Shown here in pieces: positions 48,987 through 60,963 of a stretch of 64,000 nt of DNA. Positions within the stretch are counted from its first letter, which is position 1. The number at the start of each line of letters is the position of its first letter. The stretch comes from an uncultured Acidobacteriota bacterium (GTDB lineage: Bacteria; Acidobacteriota; Vicinamibacteria; Vicinamibacterales; SCN-69-37): positions 164,189-228,188 of the forward strand of contig CAWADF010000008.1 in NCBI GenBank assembly GCA_963780855.1. Reading direction: 5' to 3'. The position numbers were made by a program, and so were the translations under genes. Below the pieces are notes generated by a model. The model ran no database searches. It saw only the letters and a program-made list of their open reading frames with translations, and was not told where the DNA came from.

Positions 48987-49526
48987 ATGTCGTCAACGTC
49001 AGCGCCGCCGGCGTGGGCCGTGGGCGCGTGCGCCGGCCTTCACGCGGCAGGCAGTCGTCATGTCGTCTACGTCCCGGACAACCCGTTGTCGCACGTGCTG
49101 CGCGTGCTTGGCGAACGCTACGCGGACGTGCAGACGACGATCGCCACGCGTGAGGAAGAGGCGTTCGGCATCGCGGCGGGGTTGTACCTGGGCGGTCAGC
49201 TGCCGACCGTCATGTTGCAGTCGAGCGGTCTCGGCAACTCGCTTAACGCGCTGACGTCGCTCCTCGTGCCCTACCAGATCCCGGCGCTGATCCTGGTCTC
49301 GATGCGCGGTGACGCGGGTGAGTGGAACTCGGCCCAAGTGCCCATGGGACGTGCGGTGGCGGCGATCTGCGAGGCGATCGGCGTGCCGGCGACAACCGTG
49401 ACGTCGGCGGAGGACACTGCCGAGACCGTCGCTCTCGTCGGCAGGACCGCGCGCATGACGCGGCTGCCCGGTGTGTGTCTGCTGCCCCGGCGAGTCACCG
49501 TGCCATCACCCAGGATGGCGTCGTGA
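48987..49526 (+). CDS. ThDP-dependent decarboxylase, alpha subunit (sulfopyruvate/phosphonopyruvate decarboxylase ComD-like, pyrimidine-binding half)
   Basis: In-frame ATG 48987 within track ORF 48867..49526(+), giving MSSTSAPPAWAVGACAGLHAAGSRHVVYVPDNPLSHVL..ATREEEAFGIAAGLYLGGQLPTVMLQSSGLGNSLNALTSLLVPYQIPALILVSMRG. At 179 aa it matches the size of split ComD subunits. Confidence 0.7.
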   Translation: MSSTSAPPAWAVGACAGLHAAGSRHVVYVPDNPLSHVLRVLGERYADVQTTIATREEEAFGIAAGLYLGGQLPTVMLQSSGLGNSLNALTSLLVPYQIPALILVSMRGDAGEWNSAQVPMGRAVAAICEAIGVPATTVTSAEDTAETVALVGRTARMTRLPGVCLLPRRVTVPSPRMAS

Positions 49527-50110
49527 CCCGGCTCGAGGCCACGCGTCATCTCGCACCGCTGCTCGGCAAGGCGGCGGTCGTCGCGAGTCTGGGCCATCCA
49601 GCCTACGACCTTTTTGCGACCGGCGACCGCGACACGTATTTCTACACGTGGGGCAGCATGGGGCTCGCGTCTTCGATTGGGCTCGGCCTCGCGATGGCGG
49701 AGCCCGAGCGGCGCGTGGTCGTCCTCGACGGCGACGGGTCGCTGCTGATGAATCTCGGGTCGCTCGCGACGATTGGTTGGGTTCGGCCGAAGAATCTCGT
49801 CGTCATCGTCTGGGACAACGGCGCGTACGGCACGACCGGCGGTCAGGACACGGCCACGGCGCACGGCGCGGACCTCGAAGCCGCGGCTCGCGCGCTGGGC
49901 ATTTCGGCGGCGACAACGGTGAAGACGCCGAAAGAGCTGGAGCACGCGATGACCCGCGCCGGTGTGGATGCGGGCCCGTGGGTGATCGTCGCGAAGGTCG
50001 AGGAATCGGCGCCGACGATGAAGCCGCCGCAGGATTGCGTGTTGATCAAGCAGCGATTCATGGCGGCGCTTGGCGTGCCGGAGGACGGGACTCGCGGGGG
50101 CAAGGCGTGA
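49523..50110 (+). CDS. ThDP-dependent decarboxylase, beta subunit (ComE-like, diphosphate-binding half)
   Basis: GTG 49523 overlaps the alpha-subunit stop (GTGA), in frame with track ORF 49322..50110(+). The ThDP motif is GSMGLASSIGLGLAMAEPERRVVVLDGDGSLLMNLGSLATIG...VIVWDNGAYGTTGGQ (GDG-X24-27-N). Length is 195 aa. Confidence 0.7.
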   Translation: MTRLEATRHLAPLLGKAAVVASLGHPAYDLFATGDRDTYFYTWGSMGLASSIGLGLAMAEPERRVVVLDGDGSLLMNLGSLATIGWVRPKNLVVIVWDNGAYGTTGGQDTATAHGADLEAAARALGISAATTVKTPKELEHAMTRAGVDAGPWVIVAKVEESAPTMKPPQDCVLIKQRFMAALGVPEDGTRGGKA

Positions 50111-51468
50111 GCGACGGATCGGCGCTGGCCCAGCTGGCGCGGTTCGTCGCGTCGTCCGCGCCGCCACCGGACGCGCGCACGCGCGCCGCCGCCGCGGTGC
50201 TCGACACGATCGGCGTCACGCTCGCCGGGACGATCGAGCCCGCGGCATCGATCGTCCGCACCCAGCTCGCTCCTCCCGGCGATCACGCCTGCGTCGTCTG
50301 GGGCGCCATGCGTCGTTCGACGCCCGGCGACGCGGCCCTGGCGAATGGCACGGCCGCGCACGCGCTCGACTACGACGACATGTGCTTCGTGTCGCTCGCG
50401 CATCCGAGCGCCCCGCTCGTGCCCGCGGTCGTGGCGGCCGCCGAAGTGGCTGCGGCGTCGGGTCGCGCCGCCCTCGAGGCGTACGTCGTCGGGTTCGAGG
50501 TGGAAGCCCGTCTCGGGCGCGTGATGAACCCGCGTCACTACCAGCGCGGCTGGCACTGCACGTCCACGCTGGGAACCATTGGCGCCGCGGCGGCGGCAAG
50601 CCGGCTGCTGGCCCTGGACGTCGGGGCGACCGCGCACGCGCTTGCCATCGCGGCGTCGGAAGCGTCGGGATTGAAAGAGAACTTCGGATCGATGGTCAAG
50701 CCGCTGCACGCGGGTCTGGCCGCCCGAAACGGCGTGCTCGCCGCGCTGCTCGCCCGCGCCGGCATGACCGCTTCCGCCCGGGCCATCGACGGTCCGCAGG
50801 GTCTGCTCGCCGCGATGGACAGCGCGGGTGCCGATCTCGCGCACGAGACGGCCGATCTCGGCAGGCGCTGGGAGATGCTCGACACCGGGATCACGGTGAA
50901 GTTGTATCCGTCGTGCGCCGGCACGCACCCGACGCTCGATGCCCTGCTCGATCTGAAATCACGCGATCGGTTTGCCGAGGAGGACGTCGATCGCGTCGAG
51001 GTCGACGTGGATCCGGTCGTGCCCACCATCTTGATTTACGACCGGCCGACGAACGCCCTCGAGGCCAAGTTCAGCCTGCCGTTCTGTGCGGCGGCCGCGG
51101 TCGTGTTCGGCGCCGTGGGCATCGACACCTTCGACGAGGAGCGAATCGCCGACGCGCGCGTCGCGTCCTTGATGCCAAGAGTGACCATGCGCGTGGATCC
51201 GACGGTCGGTCAGAACGCGCCGGCGCTGACGGAGGCGCGCGTGCGGGTGTTCCTGCGCGACGGTCGCGTGCTCGCGCAGCAGGCCCACGGCGCTCGTGGC
51301 TACCCGGCGCGGCCCGCCAGCGACGCGGAGCTCGACGCGAAATTCATGGCGTGCGCCACGCGCGCCCTGGCCACGGCGAGGGCCGCCGAGGTCCTCGCGA
51401 TCGTCCGCAGCGTGGACACCTTGACGGACGTCCGGGCGCTGACCGCGCGATTGAGCGCGATCGGCTGA
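50107..51468 (+). CDS. MmgE/PrpD-family protein (2-methylcitrate dehydratase superfamily)
   Basis: GTG 50107 overlaps the beta-subunit stop (GTGA), in frame with track ORF 49471..51468(+). Blocks are ..AAVLDTIGVTLAG.., ..ANGTAAHALDYDD.., ..GWHCTSTLGTIGAAAAASRLL.., ..GSMVKPLHAGLAARNGVLAALLA.. and ..VKLYPSCAGTHPTLDA.. Length is 453 aa. Confidence 0.85.
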   Translation: MSDGSALAQLARFVASSAPPPDARTRAAAAVLDTIGVTLAGTIEPAASIVRTQLAPPGDHACVVWGAMRRSTPGDAALANGTAAHALDYDDMCFVSLAHPSAPLVPAVVAAAEVAAASGRAALEAYVVGFEVEARLGRVMNPRHYQRGWHCTSTLGTIGAAAAASRLLALDVGATAHALAIAASEASGLKENFGSMVKPLHAGLAARNGVLAALLARAGMTASARAIDGPQGLLAAMDSAGADLAHETADLGRRWEMLDTGITVKLYPSCAGTHPTLDALLDLKSRDRFAEEDVDRVEVDVDPVVPTILIYDRPTNALEAKFSLPFCAAAAVVFGAVGIDTFDEERIADARVASLMPRVTMRVDPTVGQNAPALTEARVRVFLRDGRVLAQQAHGARGYPARPASDAELDAKFMACATRALATARAAEVLAIVRSVDTLTDVRALTARLSAIG

Positions 51469-51499
51469 GTGTCGCGTCGGGTCGGGTCTCGATTCGGTC

Positions 51500-52000
51500 T
51501 CAGGTCTTCGGCGACCGCCGCGCGTCCGCCGGGACGTGCCCGCGCTTCCAGATCAGGAACGTTCGACGGAATTCGATCACGACGTCGCCGTGCTGGTTGA
51601 GCCCGGTCGTCTTGACACTGACGATGCCTTGCGCCGGCCGGGACTTCGACTCCCGCGTCTCGAGGACCTCGCTCTTCGCGTAGATCGTGTCGCCCTCGAA
51701 GACCGGATGGGGCAGCGTGATGTCGGTCCAGCCAAGGTTGGCCACGCCGTTCACCGTGAGATCGATCACCGACTGTCCGGTGACGAGCGCCAGCGTGAAG
51801 CACGAGTTGACGAGCGGGCGCTTGAATTCGGTGTGGCTCGCGTATTCCGCGTCGAAGTGGATCGGATTGGTGTTCATCGTCAGGCAGGTGAACCAGATGT
51901 TGTCGGCCTGCGTGATCGTGCGTCCGAGCGGGTGCTCGTAGACGTCGCCCACCGCGAAGTCTTCGAAGACGCGCCCGGTCCAGCCAGGTTTGACGGCCAT
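51500..52000 (-). CDS. MaoC-family enoyl-CoA hydratase/dehydratase (hot-dog fold; itaconyl-/mesaconyl-CoA hydratase-like)
   Basis: Track ORF 51500..52000(-), 166 aa, giving ..GRTITQADNIWFTCLTMNTNPIHFDAEYA..LVNSCFTLALVTGQSV.. The start overlaps the CoA-transferase stop by 1 nt (TGATG). Confidence 0.8.
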   Translation of the reverse strand: MAVKPGWTGRVFEDFAVGDVYEHPLGRTITQADNIWFTCLTMNTNPIHFDAEYASHTEFKRPLVNSCFTLALVTGQSVIDLTVNGVANLGWTDITLPHPVFEGDTIYAKSEVLETRESKSRPAQGIVSVKTTGLNQHGDVVIEFRRTFLIWKRGHVPADARRSPKT

Positions 52001-53178
52001 CAGATCGTCCCCTCCGCGCGCCAGGCCGAGATGGCCTCCGCGTCAAAGCCGAGTTCGCCAAGGATCGCGTCGGTGTGCGCTCCAAGCGCGGGCACGGCGT
52101 CAAGTCGCGGCTCGACGTCGTCGATCTGGACCGGCGGCACCAGCGTCCGGATGCGGCCCGCGGGCGAGTCGATCTCGCGCCAGCGGCGCCGCGCCGTGAG
52201 CTGCGGGTGAGCGATGAACGCCGGCATCGTCTTCATCCGCGCATACGCGATCTGCGCGGTTTCGAGGCGCGCGACGAGCTCGCGTGTCGTCAGCGTGCCG
52301 ACGACGGCGGCGATCGCCTCGTCAAGTGCGGCGCGATTTGTCACGCGCAGCGAGTTGGTCGCGAAACGGGCGTCAGCAGCGACCTCGGCGTGGCGGAGCA
52401 CGTCGGTGCAGAGACGCACCCACTCACGGGCGTTCTGCACGGCCACGAAGACCGTGTCGCCTTCGCTCGTCGTGACCGGGCCGTACGGCGCGATCGACGC
52501 GTGGTTGAGGCCGCTGCGGCTCGGCGCGCGCCCGCCGTACGCCGTATACGCGGCAGGCGCGCCCATCCACTCGGCGAGGGCGTCGAAGAGCGACACGTCC
52601 ACCGTCGCCCCGCGACCGGAGGAGGCGCGGGAATAGAGCGCGGTGAGGACGCCTGAAAACGCGTACATCCCCGCCGAGATATCGGCGACCGAGATGCCGA
52701 CCTTTGCCGGCGCGTCGCTCGTGCCCGTGAGCGACAGCAGCCCGACCTCGCTCTGCACGAGCAGATCGTACGCCTTGCGATCGGCGTACGGGCCGGACGA
52801 GCCGTAGCCCGAGACCGAACAGACAATGAGCGCGGGGTAGCGGGCGCGAAGATCCCCGGGCGCGGTGCCGAGCCGATCGGCCGCCCCGGGCGCGACATTC
52901 TGCACGAAGACGTCCGCCCGCGCGAGCAGTCGATCGAGCACCGCGGCGGCGCCGGGCTTCTTGAGATCGAGCGTCAGTGATTCCTTCGACCGGTTGAGCC
53001 AGACGAAGTAGCTCGACAGGCCGTTGACCGTCGCGTCGTAGCTTCGCGCGAAGTCGCCGGTGCCGGGACGCTCGATCTTGATGACGCGCGCGCCCAGGTC
53101 CGCGAGCTGCCGGGTCGCGAACGGCGCCGCGACCGCCTGCTCGACCGCGACGACGGTGACGCCCTCGAGCGGCCTCAT
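52000..53178 (-). CDS. Family III CoA-transferase (CaiB/BaiF family)
   Basis: Track ORF 52000..53178(-), 392 aa, giving MRPLEGVTVVAVEQAVAAPFATRQLADLGARVIKIERPGTGDFAR..YFVWLNRSKESLTLDLK..ADVFVQNVAPGAADRLG.. Confidence 0.9.
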   Translation of the reverse strand: MRPLEGVTVVAVEQAVAAPFATRQLADLGARVIKIERPGTGDFARSYDATVNGLSSYFVWLNRSKESLTLDLKKPGAAAVLDRLLARADVFVQNVAPGAADRLGTAPGDLRARYPALIVCSVSGYGSSGPYADRKAYDLLVQSEVGLLSLTGTSDAPAKVGISVADISAGMYAFSGVLTALYSRASSGRGATVDVSLFDALAEWMGAPAAYTAYGGRAPSRSGLNHASIAPYGPVTTSEGDTVFVAVQNAREWVRLCTDVLRHAEVAADARFATNSLRVTNRAALDEAIAAVVGTLTTRELVARLETAQIAYARMKTMPAFIAHPQLTARRRWREIDSPAGRIRTLVPPVQIDDVEPRLDAVPALGAHTDAILGELGFDAEAISAWRAEGTI

Positions 53179-53238
53179 GCGCCGGAGCTCCCGGTGACGC
53201 CGGCCCCACCCTGAGATCGGACGCCGACCGGTTGGTCG

Positions 53239-54417
53239 TCAGTACGATCGCGGCAGGCCAAGAACGTGTTCGCCCACATAGGCCAGAATCAGGTTCGTCG
53301 AAATCGGCGCCACCTGGTACAGTTTCGTCTCCCTGAACTTCCGCTCGATGTCGTAGTCCTCCGCAAAGCCGAAGCCGCCATACGTCTGGACCGCGACGTT
53401 GGCCGCTTCCCACGACGCGTCCGCGGCGAGCAGCTTCGCCATGTTGGCCTCCGCCCCGCAGGGCTGGCCTCGGTCGAACAGGGTCGCAGCCTTGATGCGC
53501 ATCAGGTCCGCCGACTCGATGTTCACGTGCGCCCGTGCGATGGGAAACTGCACGCCCTGGTTCTGGCCGATCGGCCGGCCGAAGACGACGCGATCGTTCG
53601 CGTACTTCGTCGCACGCTCGATGAACCAGCGACCGTCGCCGATGCACTCCGCCGCAATCAGGATGCGCTCGGCGTTCAGCCCGTCGAGCAGGTACCGGAA
53701 CCCCTTGCCCTCTTCGCCCACGAGCGCCGACGCCGGCACTTCGAGATCGTCGAAGAACAGCTCCGTCGTCGCGTGATTCATCATCGTCCGGATGGGCCGG
53801 ATCGTCAGCCCGTGGCCGACGGCGGCGCGAAGATCCACGAGAAAGATTGAGAGGCCGTCGCCGCGTTTCTTGACCTGATCGATCGGCGTCGTCCGCGCGA
53901 CGAGCAGCAGCAGGTCCGAGTGTTCGGCGCGCGAGATCCAGACCTTCTGGCCGCGGACGACGTAGGTGTCGCCCTTGCGGACGGCCATCGTCTTGAGCTG
54001 CGTGGTGTCCGACCCCGTCGTCGGCTCGCTGACGCCGAACGCCTGCAGGCGCAGCGCGCCGCTCGCGATCTTTGGCAGGTACTCGCGCTTCTGCGCGTCG
54101 GAGCCGTGCCGGAGCAGCGTGCCCATCGTGTACATCTGCGCGTGGCACGCGCCGGCGTTCGCGCCGCTGCGGTTGATCTCCTCGAGGATGACCGCGGCCT
54201 CCGTGACGCCGAGCCCCGAGCCTCCGAACTCCTCGGGGATCAGCGCCGCAAGATAGCCGGCGTCGGTCAGCGCCTTGACGAACGCCTCAGGATAGGCGCG
54301 CCTGGCGTCCAGTTCCCGCCAGTACGCATCGGGGAACGAGCGGCAGAGATCGCGAACGGCCGAACGCAGCTCCTGATGGGCGTCGTCGTCGGGTGTCGAG
54401 GACACGCCGGGAATCAT
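53239..54417 (-). CDS. Acyl-CoA dehydrogenase
   Basis: Track ORF 53239..54417(-), 392 aa. Blocks are ..LQAFGVSEPTTGSDTTQLKTMAV.., ..KVWISRAEHSD.., ..GRPIGQNQGVQFPIARA.. and ..QTYGGFGFAEDYDIERKFRETKLYQVAPISTN.. Confidence 0.9.
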   Translation of the reverse strand: MIPGVSSTPDDDAHQELRSAVRDLCRSFPDAYWRELDARRAYPEAFVKALTDAGYLAALIPEEFGGSGLGVTEAAVILEEINRSGANAGACHAQMYTMGTLLRHGSDAQKREYLPKIASGALRLQAFGVSEPTTGSDTTQLKTMAVRKGDTYVVRGQKVWISRAEHSDLLLLVARTTPIDQVKKRGDGLSIFLVDLRAAVGHGLTIRPIRTMMNHATTELFFDDLEVPASALVGEEGKGFRYLLDGLNAERILIAAECIGDGRWFIERATKYANDRVVFGRPIGQNQGVQFPIARAHVNIESADLMRIKAATLFDRGQPCGAEANMAKLLAADASWEAANVAVQTYGGFGFAEDYDIERKFRETKLYQVAPISTNLILAYVGEHVLGLPRSY

Positions 54418-54509
54418 ATCGCGCGCATGTCGAGCCGATGACCCGTCGGTCGGCCAATCATGACGACCCCCTAAGTCGAAAGCTGCGTGGCCTGCGAGCT
54501 CGATCCGGT

Positions 54510-56126
54510 GTGGAGTACCATGGCCGCCTTGTGGGTGGCCTGGCGGATCAGCTGATCGGTCGGCTGCGCGGGGTCGGCACGCGCGCGCTGTTCGGCGTGC
54601 CCGGTGGCGGCGGCAATCTGCGCCTGATCGAGGCGGCCGGCCGGGCCGGGCTGCCGTTCGTGCTGACCGCGACGGAAACGGCCGGCGCCATCGCCGCCAT
54701 CGCGCAGTCCGAGGTGACTGGCAGCCCCGGCGCGTGCCTGACGACGCTCGGTCCAGGCGCGGCGTCGGTGGTGAACGGCGTCGCGTGCGCGTTTCTCGAG
54801 CGCGCGCCGATCTTCGTGTTCACCGACACGTACGCATCTGCGGACGCCGGCACGTTCGAGCACCAGGCCATCTCGCACACGGCGCTCTTTCAGCGCGTGA
54901 CGTCGCGGTCGCTGAGCCTGGCGCCCGATCACGCGTTCGCGTCGATCGACCAGGCGTTCACGGCCATGGCGACGCCGCCGCCCGGGCCCGTGCATTTCGA
55001 CTGTCCGGCCGACTTCGAATCCGGCGCCAGACCGAAGGCCTGGCTCGTCGGCCGATCGCATGGACCGGACGCCGAGGCGCCGGACCTCGTGCGGCTGGAG
55101 CGCCTGCTGGAGCGATCGGCCAAGCCACTCGTGATCGTCGGGCTGGCCGCGCGACGTCCGGAGGACGCCGCCGCGATTCGACAGCTTTGTGAGCGGCACG
55201 ACCTGCCCGCGATGGTCACGTACAAGGCGAAGGGCGTCGTCCCCGACAGCCACCGGTGCTTTGCCGGGATCTTCACCAACGGAGCGATCGAGCGCGAGAT
55301 CATCGACGAGAGCGATCTGCTGATCGGCATCGGCCTGGATCCCGTCGAGCTGCTGCCGCGGCCCTGGACGGTCGCGCCCGCCATCGTCGGCATCGCCGCC
55401 TGGGCGATGTCCACCGAGCACGTGCCGTTCAGCGTCCAGTGGGTGAGCGAGATTCCCGCCGCGCTCGGCCGGCTCGACGGCTGGCTTGGCCCCTCCGGCT
55501 GGGATCTGTCGGAGGTCGCGCATACCGTGCGCGAGCAGCGTCGGCGGATCGACATCGCGGCGCCCGGCCTCACGCCCCAGCGCGTCGTCGACGTCGCGGC
55601 CGAGGCGCTGGCGGCGACGAGTCGCGTCACCATCGACGCGGGCGCGCACATGTTTCCGGCCACGATGGGGTGGCCGGCGGCCGCGCCCAACGATCTGCTG
55701 ATCTCGAACGGGCTCTCGACGATGGGCTTCGCGCTGCCGGCGGCGATCGGCGCGGCCCTCGTCGATCGCGAGCGACCGGTGGTCGCGCTGACGGGCGACG
55801 GCGGTCTGCTGATGTGCGCGGGCGAGCTGCTGACGGCGGCCCGCGAGCAGCTGCGTGTGATCGTGGTCGTCTTCAACGACGCGGCGCTGAGCCTGATCGA
55901 GATCAAGCAGCAGGCGCGCAAGCTGCCGCCGGCCGGCGTCGCGCTGGGCGCGGTCCGGTGGGCCGCGCTTGCGGAGAGTCTGGGCGTCGCCGGATTCGAG
56001 GCGTCGACCGCCGACGAGCTGAGCGGCGCGATCGAGCGCGCATCAGCCTGCAACGGGCCGGCACTCATCGACGTCAAGGTCGATCGATCCACCTATGGCA
56101 ATGTGCTCGAGATCATTCGCGGGTAG
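54510..56126 (+). CDS. ThDP-dependent enzyme of the acetolactate synthase / glyoxylate carboligase / sulfoacetaldehyde acetyltransferase superfamily; start uncertain
   Basis: Track ORF 54393..56126(+). Candidate starts are ATG 54438, GTG 54510 and GTG 54531. The N-terminal domain is ..LADQLIGRLRGVGTRALFGVPGGGGNL..ETAGAIAAIAQSEVTGSPGACLTTLGPGAASVVNGVACA.. The C-terminal ThDP motif is LTGDGGLLMCAGELLTAAREQLRVIVVVFNDAALSLI. Confidence 0.75.
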   Translation: MEYHGRLVGGLADQLIGRLRGVGTRALFGVPGGGGNLRLIEAAGRAGLPFVLTATETAGAIAAIAQSEVTGSPGACLTTLGPGAASVVNGVACAFLERAPIFVFTDTYASADAGTFEHQAISHTALFQRVTSRSLSLAPDHAFASIDQAFTAMATPPPGPVHFDCPADFESGARPKAWLVGRSHGPDAEAPDLVRLERLLERSAKPLVIVGLAARRPEDAAAIRQLCERHDLPAMVTYKAKGVVPDSHRCFAGIFTNGAIEREIIDESDLLIGIGLDPVELLPRPWTVAPAIVGIAAWAMSTEHVPFSVQWVSEIPAALGRLDGWLGPSGWDLSEVAHTVREQRRRIDIAAPGLTPQRVVDVAAEALAATSRVTIDAGAHMFPATMGWPAAAPNDLLISNGLSTMGFALPAAIGAALVDRERPVVALTGDGGLLMCAGELLTAAREQLRVIVVVFNDAALSLIEIKQQARKLPPAGVALGAVRWAALAESLGVAGFEASTADELSGAIERASACNGPALIDVKVDRSTYGNVLEIIRG

Positions 56127-56129
56127 ACC

Positions 56130-57572
56130 ATGACCGAACACCTCATCATCAACGGTTCGCGCGTGCCGGCGTCCGACGCCGGCACGTTCGACGTCTTCGA
56201 CCCCTCGTCCGGCGACGTGCTCGCGACCGTGTCGAAGGCGACCGCGACGGACGTCGATCGCGCGGTCCAGGCCGCGCAGGCGGCATTCGACGGCAAGGCC
56301 TGGGGCGGCATCGCGCCGGCCGAGCGCGGGCGCATCATGCAGCGCATCGCGCAGGCGCTTCGGGATCGCGCCGAGGAGCTGGCCACGCTCGAGAGCCGGG
56401 ACAACGGCAAGCCGCTGCGGCAGGCGCGCACCGACGTCCAGGTGGCGGCGCGGTACTTCGAGTTCTTTGCGGGCGTCGCCGACAAGATCATGGGGAACAC
56501 CATCCCCCTCGGCCCGGGATTTCTCGACTACACGATTCGCGAGCCCATCGGGGTGTCCGCGCAAATCGTGCCCTGGAACTATCCGATCCAGATCGGCGCG
56601 CGCGGCGCGGCGCCGGCGCTGGCGGCCGGGTGCACCGTGGTGCTCAAGCCGTCGAGCGAGGCGCCGATGACGGCGCTGCGGCTCGGGGAAATCGCGCTCG
56701 CGTGCGGCTTGCCGCCGGGAGTGCTGAACGTCGTGCCGGGCACGGGATCGGAAGCGGGCGTCGCGCTGGCGAGTCATCACGACGTCAACCAGTTGACGTT
56801 CACCGGGTCGGTGGCCGTCGGCGTGCAAGTGGCGACGATGGCCGCCCAGAACGTCGTGCCGGTCGTCATGGAGCTGGGGGGCAAGTCGCCGAACATTGTC
56901 TTTGCGGACGCGGATCTCGATCTCGCCGTGCAAGGCGTCGCCACCGCGATCTTCCAGAACGCCGGCCAGACGTGCTCCGCGGGATCGCGCCTCCTGGTCG
57001 AGCGATCCGCGCACGGCGCGCTCGTCGATCGACTGGCCACCCGCGCGAAATCGATGCGCGTCGGGCCGGGCGTCAGCGACCCGGACATGGGGCCGATCAT
57101 CTCGAAGCGACAGCTCGAGACGATCGAACGCTACGTGCAGGAGGGCGCGGCCGAGGGCGCACACGTCGCCGCCGGCGGCGCGAGGCCGTCGGATCCCGCG
57201 CTGGCGCGCGGCTTCTACTTCCAGCCGACGCTGCTCGACGCGGTGTCGCCGGACATGCGCGTCGCGCGCGAGGAGATCTTCGGACCCGTGCTCGCCATCA
57301 TCGACTTCGACGACCTGGACGAGGCGGCGGCGCTGGCCAACCGCAGCGACTACGGGCTGGTCGCGGGCATCTGGACGCGCGACATCAACAAGGCGATGAC
57401 GCTGGCGGCGCGAATCAAGTCGGGGCAGGTGTACATCAACACGTACGGCGCGGGCGGCGGCGTGGAGCTGCCGTTCGGCGGGTACAAGAAGAGCGGATAC
57501 GGGCGGGAGAAGGGCCTCGAGTCGCTGGCCAGTTACACGCAGGTGAAGAATGTCTGCGTGAAGTACGCGTGA
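56130..57572 (+). CDS. NAD(P)-dependent aldehyde dehydrogenase
   Basis: Track ORF 56130..57572(+), 480 aa. Blocks are ..VPWNYPIQIG.., ..VMELGGKSPNIVFADADLD.. and ..GQTCSAGSRLLV.. (catalytic Cys and Glu boxes). It starts 3 nt after the preceding stop. Confidence 0.9.
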   Translation: MTEHLIINGSRVPASDAGTFDVFDPSSGDVLATVSKATATDVDRAVQAAQAAFDGKAWGGIAPAERGRIMQRIAQALRDRAEELATLESRDNGKPLRQARTDVQVAARYFEFFAGVADKIMGNTIPLGPGFLDYTIREPIGVSAQIVPWNYPIQIGARGAAPALAAGCTVVLKPSSEAPMTALRLGEIALACGLPPGVLNVVPGTGSEAGVALASHHDVNQLTFTGSVAVGVQVATMAAQNVVPVVMELGGKSPNIVFADADLDLAVQGVATAIFQNAGQTCSAGSRLLVERSAHGALVDRLATRAKSMRVGPGVSDPDMGPIISKRQLETIERYVQEGAAEGAHVAAGGARPSDPALARGFYFQPTLLDAVSPDMRVAREEIFGPVLAIIDFDDLDEAAALANRSDYGLVAGIWTRDINKAMTLAARIKSGQVYINTYGAGGGVELPFGGYKKSGYGREKGLESLASYTQVKNVCVKYA

Positions 57573-57626
57573 TCGCGCCGGCTGCCCATCTGACGCCCGC
57601 GCCGGTCGCTCGCGAAGGAGCCGCAC

Positions 57627-58520
57627 ATGACCATTGGATTCATCGGACTCGGCAACATGGGACGGCCCATGGCGTCGAATCTCGTGCGGAAGGGCTTTCA
57701 CCTGCGCGTGCACGATGTCGATCGCGATCGCGTCAGGGCGCTCGAGGCGCTCGGCGCGCAGGCGGCGGCGGACGCGCGCGGCGTGGCAGGGGCCTGCGAC
57801 GTCGTCTTCACCATGTTGCCCGATTCGGCGAGCGTGCTCGAAGTCATCGGCGGGCGGGGCGGCCTGATCGAGCACGGCCGCGCCGGACAGACGATTGTCG
57901 ACATGAGCACGATCGATCCGATCATCACCGATCGATTGGCCGCAGAGTCGGCAGCGTCGGGCATGGCGTTCGCCGACGCGCCAGTCGGACGACTCGCGAG
58001 CCACGCCGAGCGGGGCGAGTCGCTCTTCATGGTCGGCGCCGCCCCGGACGTCTTCGAACGCATCAAGCCCATGCTCGACGCCATGGGCACGACGATTCAT
58101 CACTGCGGCGCGGTCGGCACCGGGATGCGGACCAAGCTGGTCAACAACTACCTGGCGATCATCTCGTGCGCGTTCAACGCGGAGGCGGTGGCGCTGTCGC
58201 AGCGGTTCGGGCTGGCGCTCGAGAAGACGCTCGACGTGGTGCACGGCACGACCGCGACGAACGGACAGCTCAAGATCGCCTGGCCGTCCAAGGTCCTCCA
58301 GGGCGACGTCGCGCCTGGCTTCACGATCGACCTGGCACACAAGGATCTGACGCTCATCGTCGATGCCGCCAACGCCGTGAAGGTGCCGGTGCCGATTGCG
58401 GCGGCGGCACGGGAGTCGTACAGCGCGGCGCGCAGCCGCGGGCGGGGCGGCCAGGATTTCTCGGCGATGGCCGATGCACTCTGCGATGACGCCGGCATCA
58501 CGCGGCCGAGGCTAAAGTAG
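57627..58520 (+). CDS. Beta-hydroxyacid dehydrogenase (3-hydroxyisobutyrate / tartronate-semialdehyde / sulfolactaldehyde reductase family)
   Basis: Track ORF 57627..58520(+), 297 aa. The Rossmann start is MTIGFIGLGNMGRPMASNL. Further blocks are ..VDMSTIDP.. and ..GTGMRTKLVNNYL.. Confidence 0.85.
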   Translation: MTIGFIGLGNMGRPMASNLVRKGFHLRVHDVDRDRVRALEALGAQAAADARGVAGACDVVFTMLPDSASVLEVIGGRGGLIEHGRAGQTIVDMSTIDPIITDRLAAESAASGMAFADAPVGRLASHAERGESLFMVGAAPDVFERIKPMLDAMGTTIHHCGAVGTGMRTKLVNNYLAIISCAFNAEAVALSQRFGLALEKTLDVVHGTTATNGQLKIAWPSKVLQGDVAPGFTIDLAHKDLTLIVDAANAVKVPVPIAAAARESYSAARSRGRGGQDFSAMADALCDDAGITRPRLK

Positions 58521-58526
58521 AAGATC

Positions 58527-59963
58527 ATGAGCACCACCTATCCGAATCTGATCGATGGCCGGCGCGTCGAGTCGCGCGACCGCCAGTCGGACATCAACCC
58601 GTCGAACACCGCCGACATCGTCGGCGAATTCTCGCGCGCGACGACGACGGAACTGCACGAGGCGATTGCCGCGGCGCGCCAGGCGTTCGGGACGTGGTCC
58701 CGATCGACGCCGCAGCAACGGTTCGACGTGCTGGACAAGGCCGGCACCGAGATCCTCGCGCGCAAGGACGAGCTCGGCCGGCTGCTCGCGCGCGAGCAGG
58801 GCAAGCCGCTCGCCGACGGCGTCGGCGAAGCCGCGCGCGCCGGCATGATTTTCAAGTTCTTCGCCGGCGAGGCGGTGCGTCTGGCTGGCGAGCGGCTGGA
58901 TTCGACGCGGCCGGGCATCGACGTCGAGGTGACGCGCGAGCCGCTCGGCGTCGTCGCCGCGATCACGCCGTGGAACTTCCCGCTGGCGATTCCCGCGTGG
59001 AAGATCGCGCCGGCGATCGCGTTCGGAAACGCCGTCGTCTTCAAGCCCGCCGAGCTCGTGCCGGCGTCGCCCTGGGCGATAGCGGAGATCGTTCAGCGTG
59101 CGGGGCTGCCGCCGGGCGTGCTCAACCTCGTCATGGGGCCGGGATCGAAACTCGGGCCGGCCCTGGCGTCGTCGCCCGAGGTGGACGCCGTCAGTTTCAC
59201 GGGCTCGCAGGACGTCGGGCCGTCGGTGGCAGCGGCTGCGGTGGCGGCCGGATCGCGCGTCCAACTCGAGATGGGCGGGAAGAATCCGCTGATCGTGCTC
59301 GACGACGCCGATCTGCCGACCGCCGTGTCGATTGCCATCAACGGCGCGTACTTCCAGGCGGGGCAGCGCTGCACGGCGTCGAGCCGGCTGATCGTGACCG
59401 AGGGGATTCACGATCGCTTCGTCGCGGCGATGATCGACCGTATGAAGGCGCTGGTGATCGACGACGCGTTGAAGGCGGGCGTCGAGATCGGGCCGGTCGT
59501 GGACGGACGGCAGTTGGAGAAGGACCTCGAGTACGTGGCGATCGGCCAGCGCGAGGGCGCGCGGCTCGTGCAGGGCGGGGAGCGATTGAAGCGTCAGACC
59601 GACGGGTTCTACATGGCGCCCGCGCTCTTCACGGAGACGACGGGGCAGATGCGCATCAACCGCGAGGAGGTCTTCGGGCCGGTCGCGGCCGTCATTCGCG
59701 TGAAGGACTATGAGGAGGCGTTGGCGGTGGCCAACGAGACGCCGTTCGGGCTGTCGGCGGGCATCGTGACGACCTCGCTGAAGCACGCGCGGCATTTCAA
59801 ACGCAACTCGACGAGCGGGTTGGTGATGGTGAACCTGCCGACGGCCGGGCTCGACTACCACGTGCCGTTTGGCGGGCGAAAGAAATCGAGCTACGGCCCG
59901 CGCGAGCAAGGCACGTACGCGAAAGACTTCTACACGGTGGTGAAGACGGCGTACACGGGGTAG
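58527..59963 (+). CDS. Aldehyde dehydrogenase (2,5-dioxovalerate / alpha-ketoglutarate-semialdehyde dehydrogenase-like by C-terminal motif)
   Basis: Track ORF 58527..59963(+), 478 aa. Blocks are ..ITPWNFPLAIPAWK.., ..LEMGGKNPLIVLDDADL.., ..GQRCTASSRLIV.. and ..VNLPTAGLDYHVPFGGRKKSSYGPREQG.. The last base of stop TAG is the first base of the large inverted repeat. Confidence 0.85.
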   Translation: MSTTYPNLIDGRRVESRDRQSDINPSNTADIVGEFSRATTTELHEAIAAARQAFGTWSRSTPQQRFDVLDKAGTEILARKDELGRLLAREQGKPLADGVGEAARAGMIFKFFAGEAVRLAGERLDSTRPGIDVEVTREPLGVVAAITPWNFPLAIPAWKIAPAIAFGNAVVFKPAELVPASPWAIAEIVQRAGLPPGVLNLVMGPGSKLGPALASSPEVDAVSFTGSQDVGPSVAAAAVAAGSRVQLEMGGKNPLIVLDDADLPTAVSIAINGAYFQAGQRCTASSRLIVTEGIHDRFVAAMIDRMKALVIDDALKAGVEIGPVVDGRQLEKDLEYVAIGQREGARLVQGGERLKRQTDGFYMAPALFTETTGQMRINREEVFGPVAAVIRVKDYEEALAVANETPFGLSAGIVTTSLKHARHFKRNSTSGLVMVNLPTAGLDYHVPFGGRKKSSYGPREQGTYAKDFYTVVKTAYTG

Positions 59964-60072
59964 GGACGGGGCTTTTTTCCACAGATTTGGCCGTTGCAGG
60001 GACGGAGGTCGGCCGCTACGGGTCCGACCCCCGTCCCTTTTTGGCCAAATCTGTGGAAAAAAGCCCCGTCCC
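59963..60072. repeat. 110-bp nested inverted repeat: perfect 30-bp outer arms enclosing a 15-bp inner hairpin
   Basis: The outer left arm gggacggggcttttttccacagatttggcc (59963-59992) is the exact reverse complement of ggccaaatctgtggaaaaaagccccgtccc (60043-60072). The inner stem agggacggaggtcgg (59998-60012) pairs with ccgacccccgtccct (60024-60038), 14/15 paired, with an 11-nt loop. I saw only one copy in this window. Confidence 0.9.
59998..60042 (+). terminator. Rho-independent terminator for the + strand ALS-like/ALDH operon (inner hairpin + T5)
   Basis: A 15-bp GC-rich stem with an 11-nt loop is followed directly by ttttt (60038-60042). It lies 35 nt after stop 59963. Confidence 0.7.
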
Positions 60073-60963
60073 CACCACCCGACGCGCACGCGCGATCACC
60101 GGGGCGTCGACCATGCGGTCGTCGAGGCGGTAGGCGCCCTCGCCGCGCGCGCGGGCGGCGGCGTCGGCGTCGAGCAGACGACGCGCCGCCGCGATTTCTT
60201 CCGCAGACGGCGTGAACACCTCGTTGATCACGGCCACCTGATCCGGGTGAATCGCCATCTTGCCGCGGAAGCCCAGCGATCGTGCACGCACCGCGTCCTC
60301 GCGCAGCCGATCCGCCGACGTCAGATCCACGAACACGGCGTCGATCGGATCAGCGCCGATCGTCGCGGCCGCTAGCACGACCTGGGACCGCGCCAGCTGA
60401 ATCTCGTTACCTCCAAGCGTGCGCGGGATCCCGAGCTCGGCGGTGAGATCCTCCGCGCCGAAGAAGATCGCCGGGATTCGAGCGTTGGCCGACACGATCG
60501 CGGCGGCGCCAAGAATCCCGCGCGCCGTCTCGAGCAGCGGGATCACGGCCCGCGCCGGCGCGACAGCGGCCACCCGATCGACATCGCGGGCCGACTCCGC
60601 CTTCGGCAGCACGACGCCATCGACGCGCGCGGCGACGCCCGCCAGCCACGTCAGATCATCGTCGATCCACGGCGACGCGGCGCCGTTGACGCGAACCAGC
60701 CGCGCCGGGGCCGCGGCGCCCGCCGCACCCTGGCCGAGAAAGTCGCCGACGAGCCGCCGCGCTTCGTCCTTGCGCGTCGCGTCGACAGCGTCCTCGAGAT
60801 CGAGCACCACGGCGTCCGCGCCGGCAGCCATGGCCTTGGCGAAACGGTCAGCTCGAGTCCCGGGCACGAAGAGCACGGAGCGCAGGAGCGACGCCACGCC
60901 GCCATTGTCATCGATCCACGGCACCGCCAGACAGCAATCGCTGGCGCCGGCCGCAGCCGGCAT
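60016..60963 (-). CDS. HpcH/HpaI aldolase - citrate lyase beta (CitE)-like acyl-CoA lyase (citramalyl-/malyl-/beta-methylmalyl-CoA lyase type)
   Basis: Track ORF 60016..60963(-). The start is ambiguous (ATG 60963, GTG 60924 or GTG 60897, the last giving VASLLRSVLFVPGTRADRF). Blocks are ..LRSVLFVPGTRADRFAKAMAAGADAVVLDLEDAV.., ..VVLPKAES.., ..IFFGAEDLTAELG.. and ..GFRGKMAIHPDQV.. The stop codon 60016-60018 sits in the loop of the inner hairpin. The last 19 codons lie in the right half of the inverted repeat. Confidence 0.85.
   Translation of the reverse strand: MPAAAGASDCCLAVPWIDDNGGVASLLRSVLFVPGTRADRFAKAMAAGADAVVLDLEDAVDATRKDEARRLVGDFLGQGAAGAAAPARLVRVNGAASPWIDDDLTWLAGVAARVDGVVLPKAESARDVDRVAAVAPARAVIPLLETARGILGAAAIVSANARIPAIFFGAEDLTAELGIPRTLGGNEIQLARSQVVLAAATIGADPIDAVFVDLTSADRLREDAVRARSLGFRGKMAIHPDQVAVINEVFTPSAEEIAAARRLLDADAAARARGEGAYRLDDRMVDAPVIARARRVVGTGLFSTDLAKKGRGSDP

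Follow-up and report, generated by a model that had tools for sequence, protein, structure and literature searches.

We analysed a stretch of 64,000 nucleotides (nt; hereafter the window) from contig CAWADF010000008.1 of an uncultured bacterium of the order Vicinamibacterales (Acidobacteriota). It contains three consecutive genes encoding the alpha and beta subunits of a split thiamine diphosphate (ThDP)-dependent decarboxylase and an MmgE/PrpD-family protein (PrpD-like below). This triad is a conserved, uncharacterised add-on to the itaconate/methylsuccinate breakdown pathway, and not a free-standing three-protein machine. A second ThDP enzyme (tppL) and an aldehyde dehydrogenase are also members of the cluster here. 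In our preferred reading, to which we assign a probability of roughly 55%, the triad is the coupled head of a Vicinamibacterales cluster for the breakdown of branched or substituted succinate-type acids, a variant of the itaconate/methylsuccinate pathway that would be fed by alpha/beta together with an aldehyde dehydrogenase, ALDH1. We hold any particular substrate, for example 4-methyl-2-oxoglutarate, to be far less certain. The genes of the triad are as follows.

48987-49526, plus strand: alpha, PYR-domain subunit of the split ThDP-dependent 2-oxo-acid decarboxylase, 179 aa, PF02776 (TPP_enzyme_N)
49523-50110, plus strand: beta, PP-domain subunit with the GDG...N ThDP motif, 195 aa, GTG start in GTGA, PF02775 (TPP_enzyme_C)
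50107-51468, plus strand: MmgE/PrpD-family protein, iminodisuccinate (IDS)-epimerase-like, 453 aa, GTG start in GTGA, PF03972 + PF19305 (MmgE_PrpD_N and C)

The open reading frames (ORFs) were read directly from the sequence: alpha from ATG at 48987 to TGA at 49524-49526, beta from GTG at 49523 to TGA at 50108-50110, and the PrpD-like gene from GTG at 50107 to TGA at 51466-51468. The GTGA tetramers at 49523-49526 and 50107-50110 make two successive 4-nt overlaps. The codon-position GC content of all three is gene-like (GC3 0.84-0.88; window GC 69%). Residue 3 of beta corresponds to position 1 of the TIGR03846 profile and residue 8 of the PrpD-like protein to position 4 of PF03972, both of which support the GTG starts; purine-rich motifs resembling Shine-Dalgarno sequences (AGGA, GGGGG) are located 6-7 nt 5' of both, and choosing the next in-frame start of the PrpD-like gene would remove 30 conserved residues. 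Thus the lengths, GTG starts and overlaps given in a previous sequence-only reading of this locus hold, and the starts are backed by the profile N-termini, the upstream motifs and the overlaps in relatives. Alpha, beta and the PrpD-like gene are real genes and are translationally coupled. By ORF coordinates, other short overlaps in the window are those of AcrB/OEP (4 nt), HlyD/AcrB (1 nt) and Ict/Ich (1 nt). Since short overlaps are common in the window, those of the triad mark operon membership and nothing more special.

The surrounding cluster and its conservation

The genes next to the triad are listed below.

51500-52000, minus strand: MaoC-type hydratase, Ich-like (itaconyl/mesaconyl-CoA hydratase family), PF19315/PF01575, NF038241 RipB_Ich
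52000-53178, minus strand: family III CoA-transferase, Ict-like, PF02515
53239-54417, minus strand: acyl-CoA dehydrogenase (acad), Mcd-like by cluster position, PF00441/02771/02770
54393-56126, plus strand: tppL, full-length ThDP enzyme, AlsS-like, PF02776/00205/02775, match from residue 50
56130-57572, plus strand: ALDH1, aldehyde dehydrogenase, likely partner of the decarboxylase, PF00171
57627-58520, plus strand: HIBADH-family dehydrogenase, peripheral, in some loci only, PF03446/PF14833
58527-59963, plus strand: ALDH2, 2,5-dioxovalerate-dehydrogenase-like, peripheral, PF00171
60016-60963, minus strand: HpcH/CitE-type acyl-CoA lyase, Ccl-like (ccl), PF03328, NF038242 RipC_Ccl

The ich-ict-acad operon is convergent with the triad, the tppL-ALDH1-HIBADH-ALDH2 genes are divergent from ich-ict-acad, and ccl is convergent with ALDH2. 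The Ict, Ich, Ccl, Mcd and PrpD families are thus all found within 48987-60963, and the synteny is kept in relatives. The Ich-like hydratase scores 212 bits with NF038241 (cut-off 340) and the Ccl-like lyase 188 bits with NF038242 (cut-off 375). The Ict-like protein matches NCBIfam models of succinate-glutarate, oxalate and mesaconate CoA-transferases best, without reaching any of the cut-offs. Acad orthologues are 74-97% identical between loci, and acad, two genes away from the PrpD-like gene in the window (in the convergent operon), is directly adjacent to it in genome G122. The matches of ALDH1 in the Protein Data Bank (PDB) are generic aldehyde dehydrogenases and do not narrow its substrate; nor do those of tppL, whose nearest solved relatives are catabolic acetolactate synthases. 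The longest ORF of tppL would overlap the start of the divergent acad gene by 25 nt (54393-54417). Its true start is probably downstream of 54393, as the Pfam match begins at residue 50, which would leave a short divergent promoter region. Of the peripheral genes, the HIBADH-family one matches sulfolactaldehyde 3-reductase best (296 bits, cut-off 348), and ALDH2 scores 501 bits with NF052305 (cut-off 750).

Four of the sampled genomes of the same order (G009, G110, G122 and G258) contain orthologues of the PrpD-like protein with 57-64% identity. In each orthologous locus examined, the gene lies beside acad-ict-ich. A 37% identical paralogue in an unpublished genome, G049, was left out of all conclusions. 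The gene order is alpha-beta-ccl-prpD facing acad-ict-ich, with ALDH1 alongside, in G009, and alpha-beta-acad-prpD in G122. In G110 and G258 it is acad-ict-ich, an amidohydrolase gene and prpD-ccl, with no alpha/beta. The amidohydrolase-family gene between ich and the PrpD orthologue is located at L033:8164-9567 (G110) and L034:11250-12698 (G258); amidohydrolase genes are also found near loci L127, L156 and L184.

A metagenome scan with beta yielded 80 loci. Alpha was located 5' of beta in all 55 loci with upstream room, and PrpD directly 3' of beta in 32 of the 44 with downstream room. By a nearest-start heuristic, alpha and beta share the 4-nt overlap in 57 of the 75 loci scored, and for beta and PrpD the figure is 28 of 50. 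A second scan, with one genome per species, found this beta subfamily in 119 species. The best 80 were examined, giving 72 loci with room downstream, in which PrpD followed beta directly (40 loci), followed an inserted ccl (5), was located farther off (6) or was absent (21). Dozens of Vicinamibacterales genomes and of contigs from soil thus have the alpha-beta-PrpD order that the sequence-only reading had proposed to look for in other genomes. A search of sequencing runs listed no RNA data set with this DNA, only soil DNA runs of one study in which its share was small.

Four arrangements were distinguished. Type A, the largest clade, has the order of the window, alpha-beta-prpD facing ich-ict-acad. 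Type B consists of one operon, tppL-acad-ict-ich-aldh1-alpha-beta-ccl-prpD; type C has the gene order of G009, and type D has alpha/beta alone. On the beta tree the context types follow clades; type D forms one derived clade, and the association extends to the outgroup G122. TppL is conserved in type A and B clusters. ALDH1 orthologues, 70-93% identical in types A, B and C, co-occur with alpha/beta and are encoded directly 5' of alpha in type B operons. Ccl is inserted between beta and prpD in types B and C, whereas type A has a different ccl paralogue, on the opposite strand at a distance of 8.5 kb, which shares about 40% identity with that of types B and C.

When all neighbouring ORFs were clustered, no other widely conserved family emerged, apart from a short-chain dehydrogenase/reductase (SDR) and a second CoA-transferase in 12 species. 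In these 12 species the stop codon of the SDR gene overlaps the start of alpha, so that the coupled operon extends upstream. The sub-clade (L181:7557-9489 and 11 other species-level loci) encodes, besides the SDR, this further CoA-transferase of family III, which shares about 40% identity with Ict. In locus L150 (2307-3530) a gene for a Na+:dicarboxylate symporter (SDF family) is located directly 5' of, and co-directional with, a nine-gene type B operon, which hints at a dicarboxylate or an acidic amino acid as the substrate. No consistent functional hint came from genes found between PrpD and ich in some loci (MacB-type permease; PD40/amidohydrolase) or from the neighbours of type D alpha/beta (AAA ATPase, ABC transporter genes, amidohydrolase). 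Loci L129, L135, L149, L150, L154, L156 and L157 contain the same cluster, with beta 67-72% identical, in metagenome-assembled genomes with non-acidobacterial labels (Betaproteobacteria, Thermoflexaceae, Actinomycetes, Gemmatimonadetes/Gemmatimonadaceae). These could be due to horizontal transfer or to mis-binned acidobacterial contigs.

The same gene orders bear on the suggestion that the coupling marks stoichiometric partners. That alpha, beta and the PrpD-like protein form a stoichiometric complex channelling an unstable intermediate is favoured by the two successive 4-nt overlaps, kept in many relatives. However, either side occurs without the other: five genomes with stand-alone (type D) alpha/beta have no orthologue of the PrpD-like protein, and no alpha/beta was found anywhere (E<=1e-15) in the closed Vicinamibacterales genomes G110 and G258, though the PrpD orthologue is present there. 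Moreover, other genes split beta from PrpD, namely ccl in types B and C and acad in G122, and short overlaps are common in the genome. As each part occurs without the other and genes are inserted between them, an obligate alpha/beta/PrpD complex is unlikely, and we consider channelling within a complex of this kind very improbable. Hence, the notion of beta and PrpD as stoichiometric partners is not supported. The link between alpha/beta and PrpD is more plausibly one of pathway than of subunits, with the overlaps giving co-expression.

Predicted activities of the three proteins

The domain matches identify alpha as the PYR half and beta as the PP half of a predicted ThDP enzyme whose cofactor motifs are intact; G70-D71-G72 and N99 of beta, the ThDP motif, are invariant in the beta alignment. 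The named models matching best are ComD/ComE, along with the unnamed PRK06163 for beta, and all these matches are below cut-off: alpha scores 128.4 bits with TIGR03845 (cut-off 147.95), and beta 171.6 bits with TIGR03846 (cut-off 221.5) and 173 bits with NF004813 (cut-off 240). The scores with the Ppd model TIGR03297 are 84.7 bits for alpha and 138.3 bits for beta, the cut-off being 312.5. The nearest solved relatives are RhiE (9IZ3_A) for alpha and RhiF (9IZ3_B) for beta, the matches being weak and partial (88 and 55 bits). Thus the pair was labelled 'ComD/ComE-type' rightly as regards architecture, but the equivalog cut-offs are not reached, and the profile scores place alpha/beta in an uncharacterised subfamily related to, but outside, the ComDE sulfopyruvate and Ppd/RhiEF phosphonopyruvate decarboxylases.

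The genome assembly searched comprises 5.13 Mb in 9 contigs with a listed marker completeness of 59.6%. This value, odd for so contiguous an assembly, sets a limit to any claim that a gene is absent. The genome encodes a second split alpha/beta pair outside the window, at G000:C8:1736143-1737430 (L207:8143-9431). Its beta is 44% identical to that of the window; there is a 4-nt overlap between its alpha and beta genes, a putative cyclase gene (PF04199) follows them, and no dicarboxylate genes are nearby.

The best-matching names raise the question of whether alpha/beta is a true sulfopyruvate decarboxylase of an organosulfonate route, of the 2,3-dihydroxypropane-1-sulfonate (DHPS) or sulfolactate type, that merely lies beside dicarboxylate genes. 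ComD and ComE are its best or near-best named matches, and sulfolactaldehyde reductase is the best match of the HIBADH-family gene close by. On the other hand, all these scores are below cut-off and the HIBADH gene is present in few loci only. No Xsc above cut-off was found in the genome, the best match (192 bits, cut-off 676) being away from the cluster and tppL scoring only 55 bits; ComA, ComB and ComC were not searched for. Further, alpha/beta co-varies with the PrpD, acad, ict and ich genes over a deep tree. We therefore regard a sulfonate route as improbable.

The PrpD-like protein, the product of the sole PrpD-family gene in the genome, matches the N- and C-terminal MmgE/PrpD domains with 193 bits (PF03972) and 139 bits (PF19305). 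Its solved relatives are, in order of rank, IDS epimerase (2HP0/2HP3; 232 bits over residues 24-417), the 'IRG1' of B. subtilis and cis-aconitate decarboxylase. No PDB chain of the 2-methylcitrate dehydratase PrpD was matched even at E<=10, and the score with NF042438 is 35 bits against a cut-off of 950. The identity of a 2-methylcitrate dehydratase was ruled out by these results.

Residues H85, D88, H99, Y145, H150, K198 and K265 are invariant in 120 PrpD-like orthologues. All of them except Y145 make up the carboxylate-binding His/acid/His/Lys/Lys set of the superfamily. Y145 aligns with a Tyr of IDS epimerase and with a Met of cis-aconitate decarboxylase. Precisely this Tyr/His pair, H99 and Y145 here, has been assigned to the two-base, epimerase-type members of the family (PMC12290011), one of which, the methylsuccinate isomerase (Msi) of P. 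aeruginosa, has the published residues H88, E91, H102, Y148 and H152. The spacing of H99 and Y145 (+46 from His to Tyr) is the same as that of the catalytic His102 and Tyr148 in Msi. The comparison with Msi rests on these published residue numbers and on Acidobacteria homologues. From this residue pattern the PrpD-like protein is predicted to be a two-base epimerase or isomerase of a 2-substituted succinate.

The sequence-only reading had suggested another role, in which the PrpD-like enzyme itself makes or uses the 2-oxo acid. It would then be a dehydratase or decarboxylase for a hydroxy- or tricarboxylic acid, and alpha/beta would decarboxylate its product. Such a role accords with the beta/PrpD overlap in over half of the loci scored and with a family that includes dehydratases and a decarboxylase (PMC12290011). 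It is at odds with the invariant epimerase-typical Tyr, a Met in the decarboxylase of the family, with the lack of true PrpD among the PDB matches and the low NF042438 score, and with the PrpD orthologues in genomes that have no alpha/beta. We consider it improbable.

Proposed route and its alternatives

If our preferred reading is correct, an alpha2beta2 enzyme would decarboxylate a dicarboxylic 2-oxo acid, for which a 3- or 4-substituted 2-oxoglutarate or an analogue of oxaloacetate are the candidates, to a semialdehyde, and ALDH1 would oxidise the latter to a 2-substituted succinate. The PrpD-like protein would interconvert the stereoisomers of this acid, providing the form accepted by the CoA-transferase, after which the acyl-CoA dehydrogenase, the hydratase and the lyase would yield acetyl-CoA and pyruvate. 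The earlier suggestion of a 2-oxo acid converted to an aldehyde for a nearby aldehyde dehydrogenase fits this scheme, given the ALDH1 orthologue that accompanies alpha/beta and directly precedes alpha in type B; its other half, with PrpD making or using the 2-oxo acid, is disfavoured by the epimerase Tyr.

Alternatively, alpha/beta may act after the lyase. A substituted citramalyl-CoA-like ester would then be cleaved by the Ccl-like enzyme to give a non-central 2-oxo acid, which alpha/beta with ALDH1 would turn into a usable acid. Enzymes of the ComDE/Ppd type use C3-substituted pyruvate derivatives, and CitE-type cleavage would release just such compounds; ALDH1 co-occurs, and the basal types read alpha-beta-ccl-prpD with overlaps or small gaps. 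In contrast, the ccl of type A, including that of the window, is distant, on the other strand and from a different paralogous group. Genomes without alpha/beta retain PrpD-ccl, so the lyase product needs no decarboxylase there. On balance, a role after the lyase seems unlikely, though somewhat less so than the other alternatives.

Several points weigh against the route in which alpha/beta and ALDH1 feed the pathway. The Ich-, Ccl- and Ict-like proteins are all below the NCBIfam equivalog cut-offs. TppL has no explained place in the scheme, and clustering of the neighbouring ORFs gave no conserved aminotransferase or oxidase as a source of the 2-oxo acid. The alpha-beta-ccl order of the basal arrangements fits a role after the lyase equally well. 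The PrpD-like protein has Asp88 where Msi has Glu91, and its Tyr145 and His150 are five residues apart, compared to four for Tyr148 and His152 of Msi; because the pattern thus differs from that of the canonical methylsuccinate isomerase, its substrate may not be methylsuccinate. Finally, other Acidobacteria PrpD-like proteins encoded beside acad-ict-ich show the exact Msi pattern (H..E, HYxxxH).

These Acidobacteriota loci with the Msi pattern are L035-L037 (genomes G082, G130 and G069). As a Msi-pattern PrpD is encoded there beside acad-ict-ich, the canonical pathway appears to exist in Acidobacteriota as well. Two PrpD-family subtypes, the Msi-pattern and the IDS-epimerase-like one, thus fill one cluster position, both adjoining acad-ict-ich, and alpha/beta travels with the latter. 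This finding is useful for annotation, since such genes are now labelled '2-methylcitrate dehydratase' and 'acetolactate synthase-like'.

A more far-reaching possibility, which we hold only tentatively and consider less probable than the route itself, is that the ComDE/Ppd-like alpha/beta no longer uses sulfonated or phosphonated pyruvates but a 2-oxo acid that is carboxylated (a branched 2-oxoglutarate or an analogue of oxaloacetate) and, with ALDH1, makes methylsuccinate/itaconate-type acids in the cell, the IDS-epimerase-like PrpD replacing the methylsuccinate isomerase. No paper linking these decarboxylases to oxaloacetate or malonate semialdehyde was found in the literature. If the switch did occur, it would provide a new substrate class for the decarboxylase family, a third specificity besides sulfopyruvate and phosphonopyruvate, as well as a biological source of methylsuccinate-type acids in soil, a source called unclear in PMC12290011, where the environmental origin of methylsuccinate is described as poorly understood. 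The conserved front end formed by the split decarboxylase and the aldehyde dehydrogenase suggests a precursor pool that has gone unrecognised. Vicinamibacterales are abundant in soil and mostly uncultured.

Comparison with known systems

ComDE shares with the window pair the two-subunit PYR and PP architecture, the genes coupled by 4 nt and the ThDP motifs, and provides its best named profile matches. Apart from falling below both equivalog cut-offs, the window pair differs in its context, a dicarboxylate/CoA cluster with no coenzyme M or sulfonate genes. RhiEF (PDB 9IZ3/9IZ4; PMC12141560) is a heterotetrameric split ThDP decarboxylase and the closest solved structure for both subunits. The match to it is weak and partial, however, TIGR03297 is far from its cut-off, and the 5.13-Mb assembly gave no match to the phosphoenolpyruvate mutase model TIGR02320 at E<=0.001, which at the completeness of 59.6% does not prove absence.

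The cyanobacterial OgdA-SsaD route from 2-oxoglutarate to succinate (PMC5160925) resembles the one predicted here in that the semialdehyde formed by a ThDP decarboxylase is oxidised to a dicarboxylate by an aldehyde dehydrogenase. OgdA is a single-chain enzyme similar to acetohydroxyacid synthase, whereas that of the window is split and ComDE-like, and its product is predicted to enter a CoA-dependent pathway for branched acids. The IDS epimerase of Agrobacterium tumefaciens (2HP0/2HP3) has motifs identical to those of the PrpD-like protein, HA(L/I)D...HPS...HY(x)3GWH...KP(L/M)H. In the window the gene lies in a context of CoA-dependent dicarboxylate catabolism, and no C-N lyase was seen; for this reason the substrate is probably not iminodisuccinate.

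The closest system is found in Pseudomonas aeruginosa (PA0878-PA0883) and Cupriavidus necator, a cluster that encodes Ict, Ich, Ccl, Mcd and an MmgE/PrpD-family methylsuccinate isomerase (PMC12290011; PMC9875883; PMC13491972). The pathway was completed in 2025, when the PrpD-family member was identified as a (S)-(R)-methylsuccinate isomerase and the acyl-CoA dehydrogenase as a methylsuccinyl-CoA dehydrogenase; the survey in that study included two Acidobacteriota only, both of them Terriglobia (PMC12290011). The statement of the sequence-only reading that no described pathway pairs such a decarboxylase with a PrpD-family protein stands insofar as no paper pairing sulfopyruvate decarboxylase with PrpD was found, but it overlooked that a PrpD-family enzyme is already known in itaconate/methylsuccinate-type clusters (PMC12290011). 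Likewise, we found no paper that joins a ComDE-like split decarboxylase, an AlsS-like enzyme and an aldehyde dehydrogenase to this cluster, or one with the IDS-epimerase-like subtype at this position. All five enzyme families of the known cluster are represented in the window, the PrpD-family member having the two-base His/Tyr set. It differs in its host, Acidobacteriota instead of Pseudomonadota, in the IDS-epimerase-like subtype of PrpD, with Asp for Glu and a Tyr-His spacing longer by one, and in the added split ThDP decarboxylase, AlsS-like ThDP enzyme and aldehyde dehydrogenase(s). Thus, the presence of a PrpD-family gene was already known for clusters of this kind, and the part that seems new is the addition of the split decarboxylase, the AlsS-like enzyme and the aldehyde dehydrogenase, together with the IDS-epimerase-like subtype.

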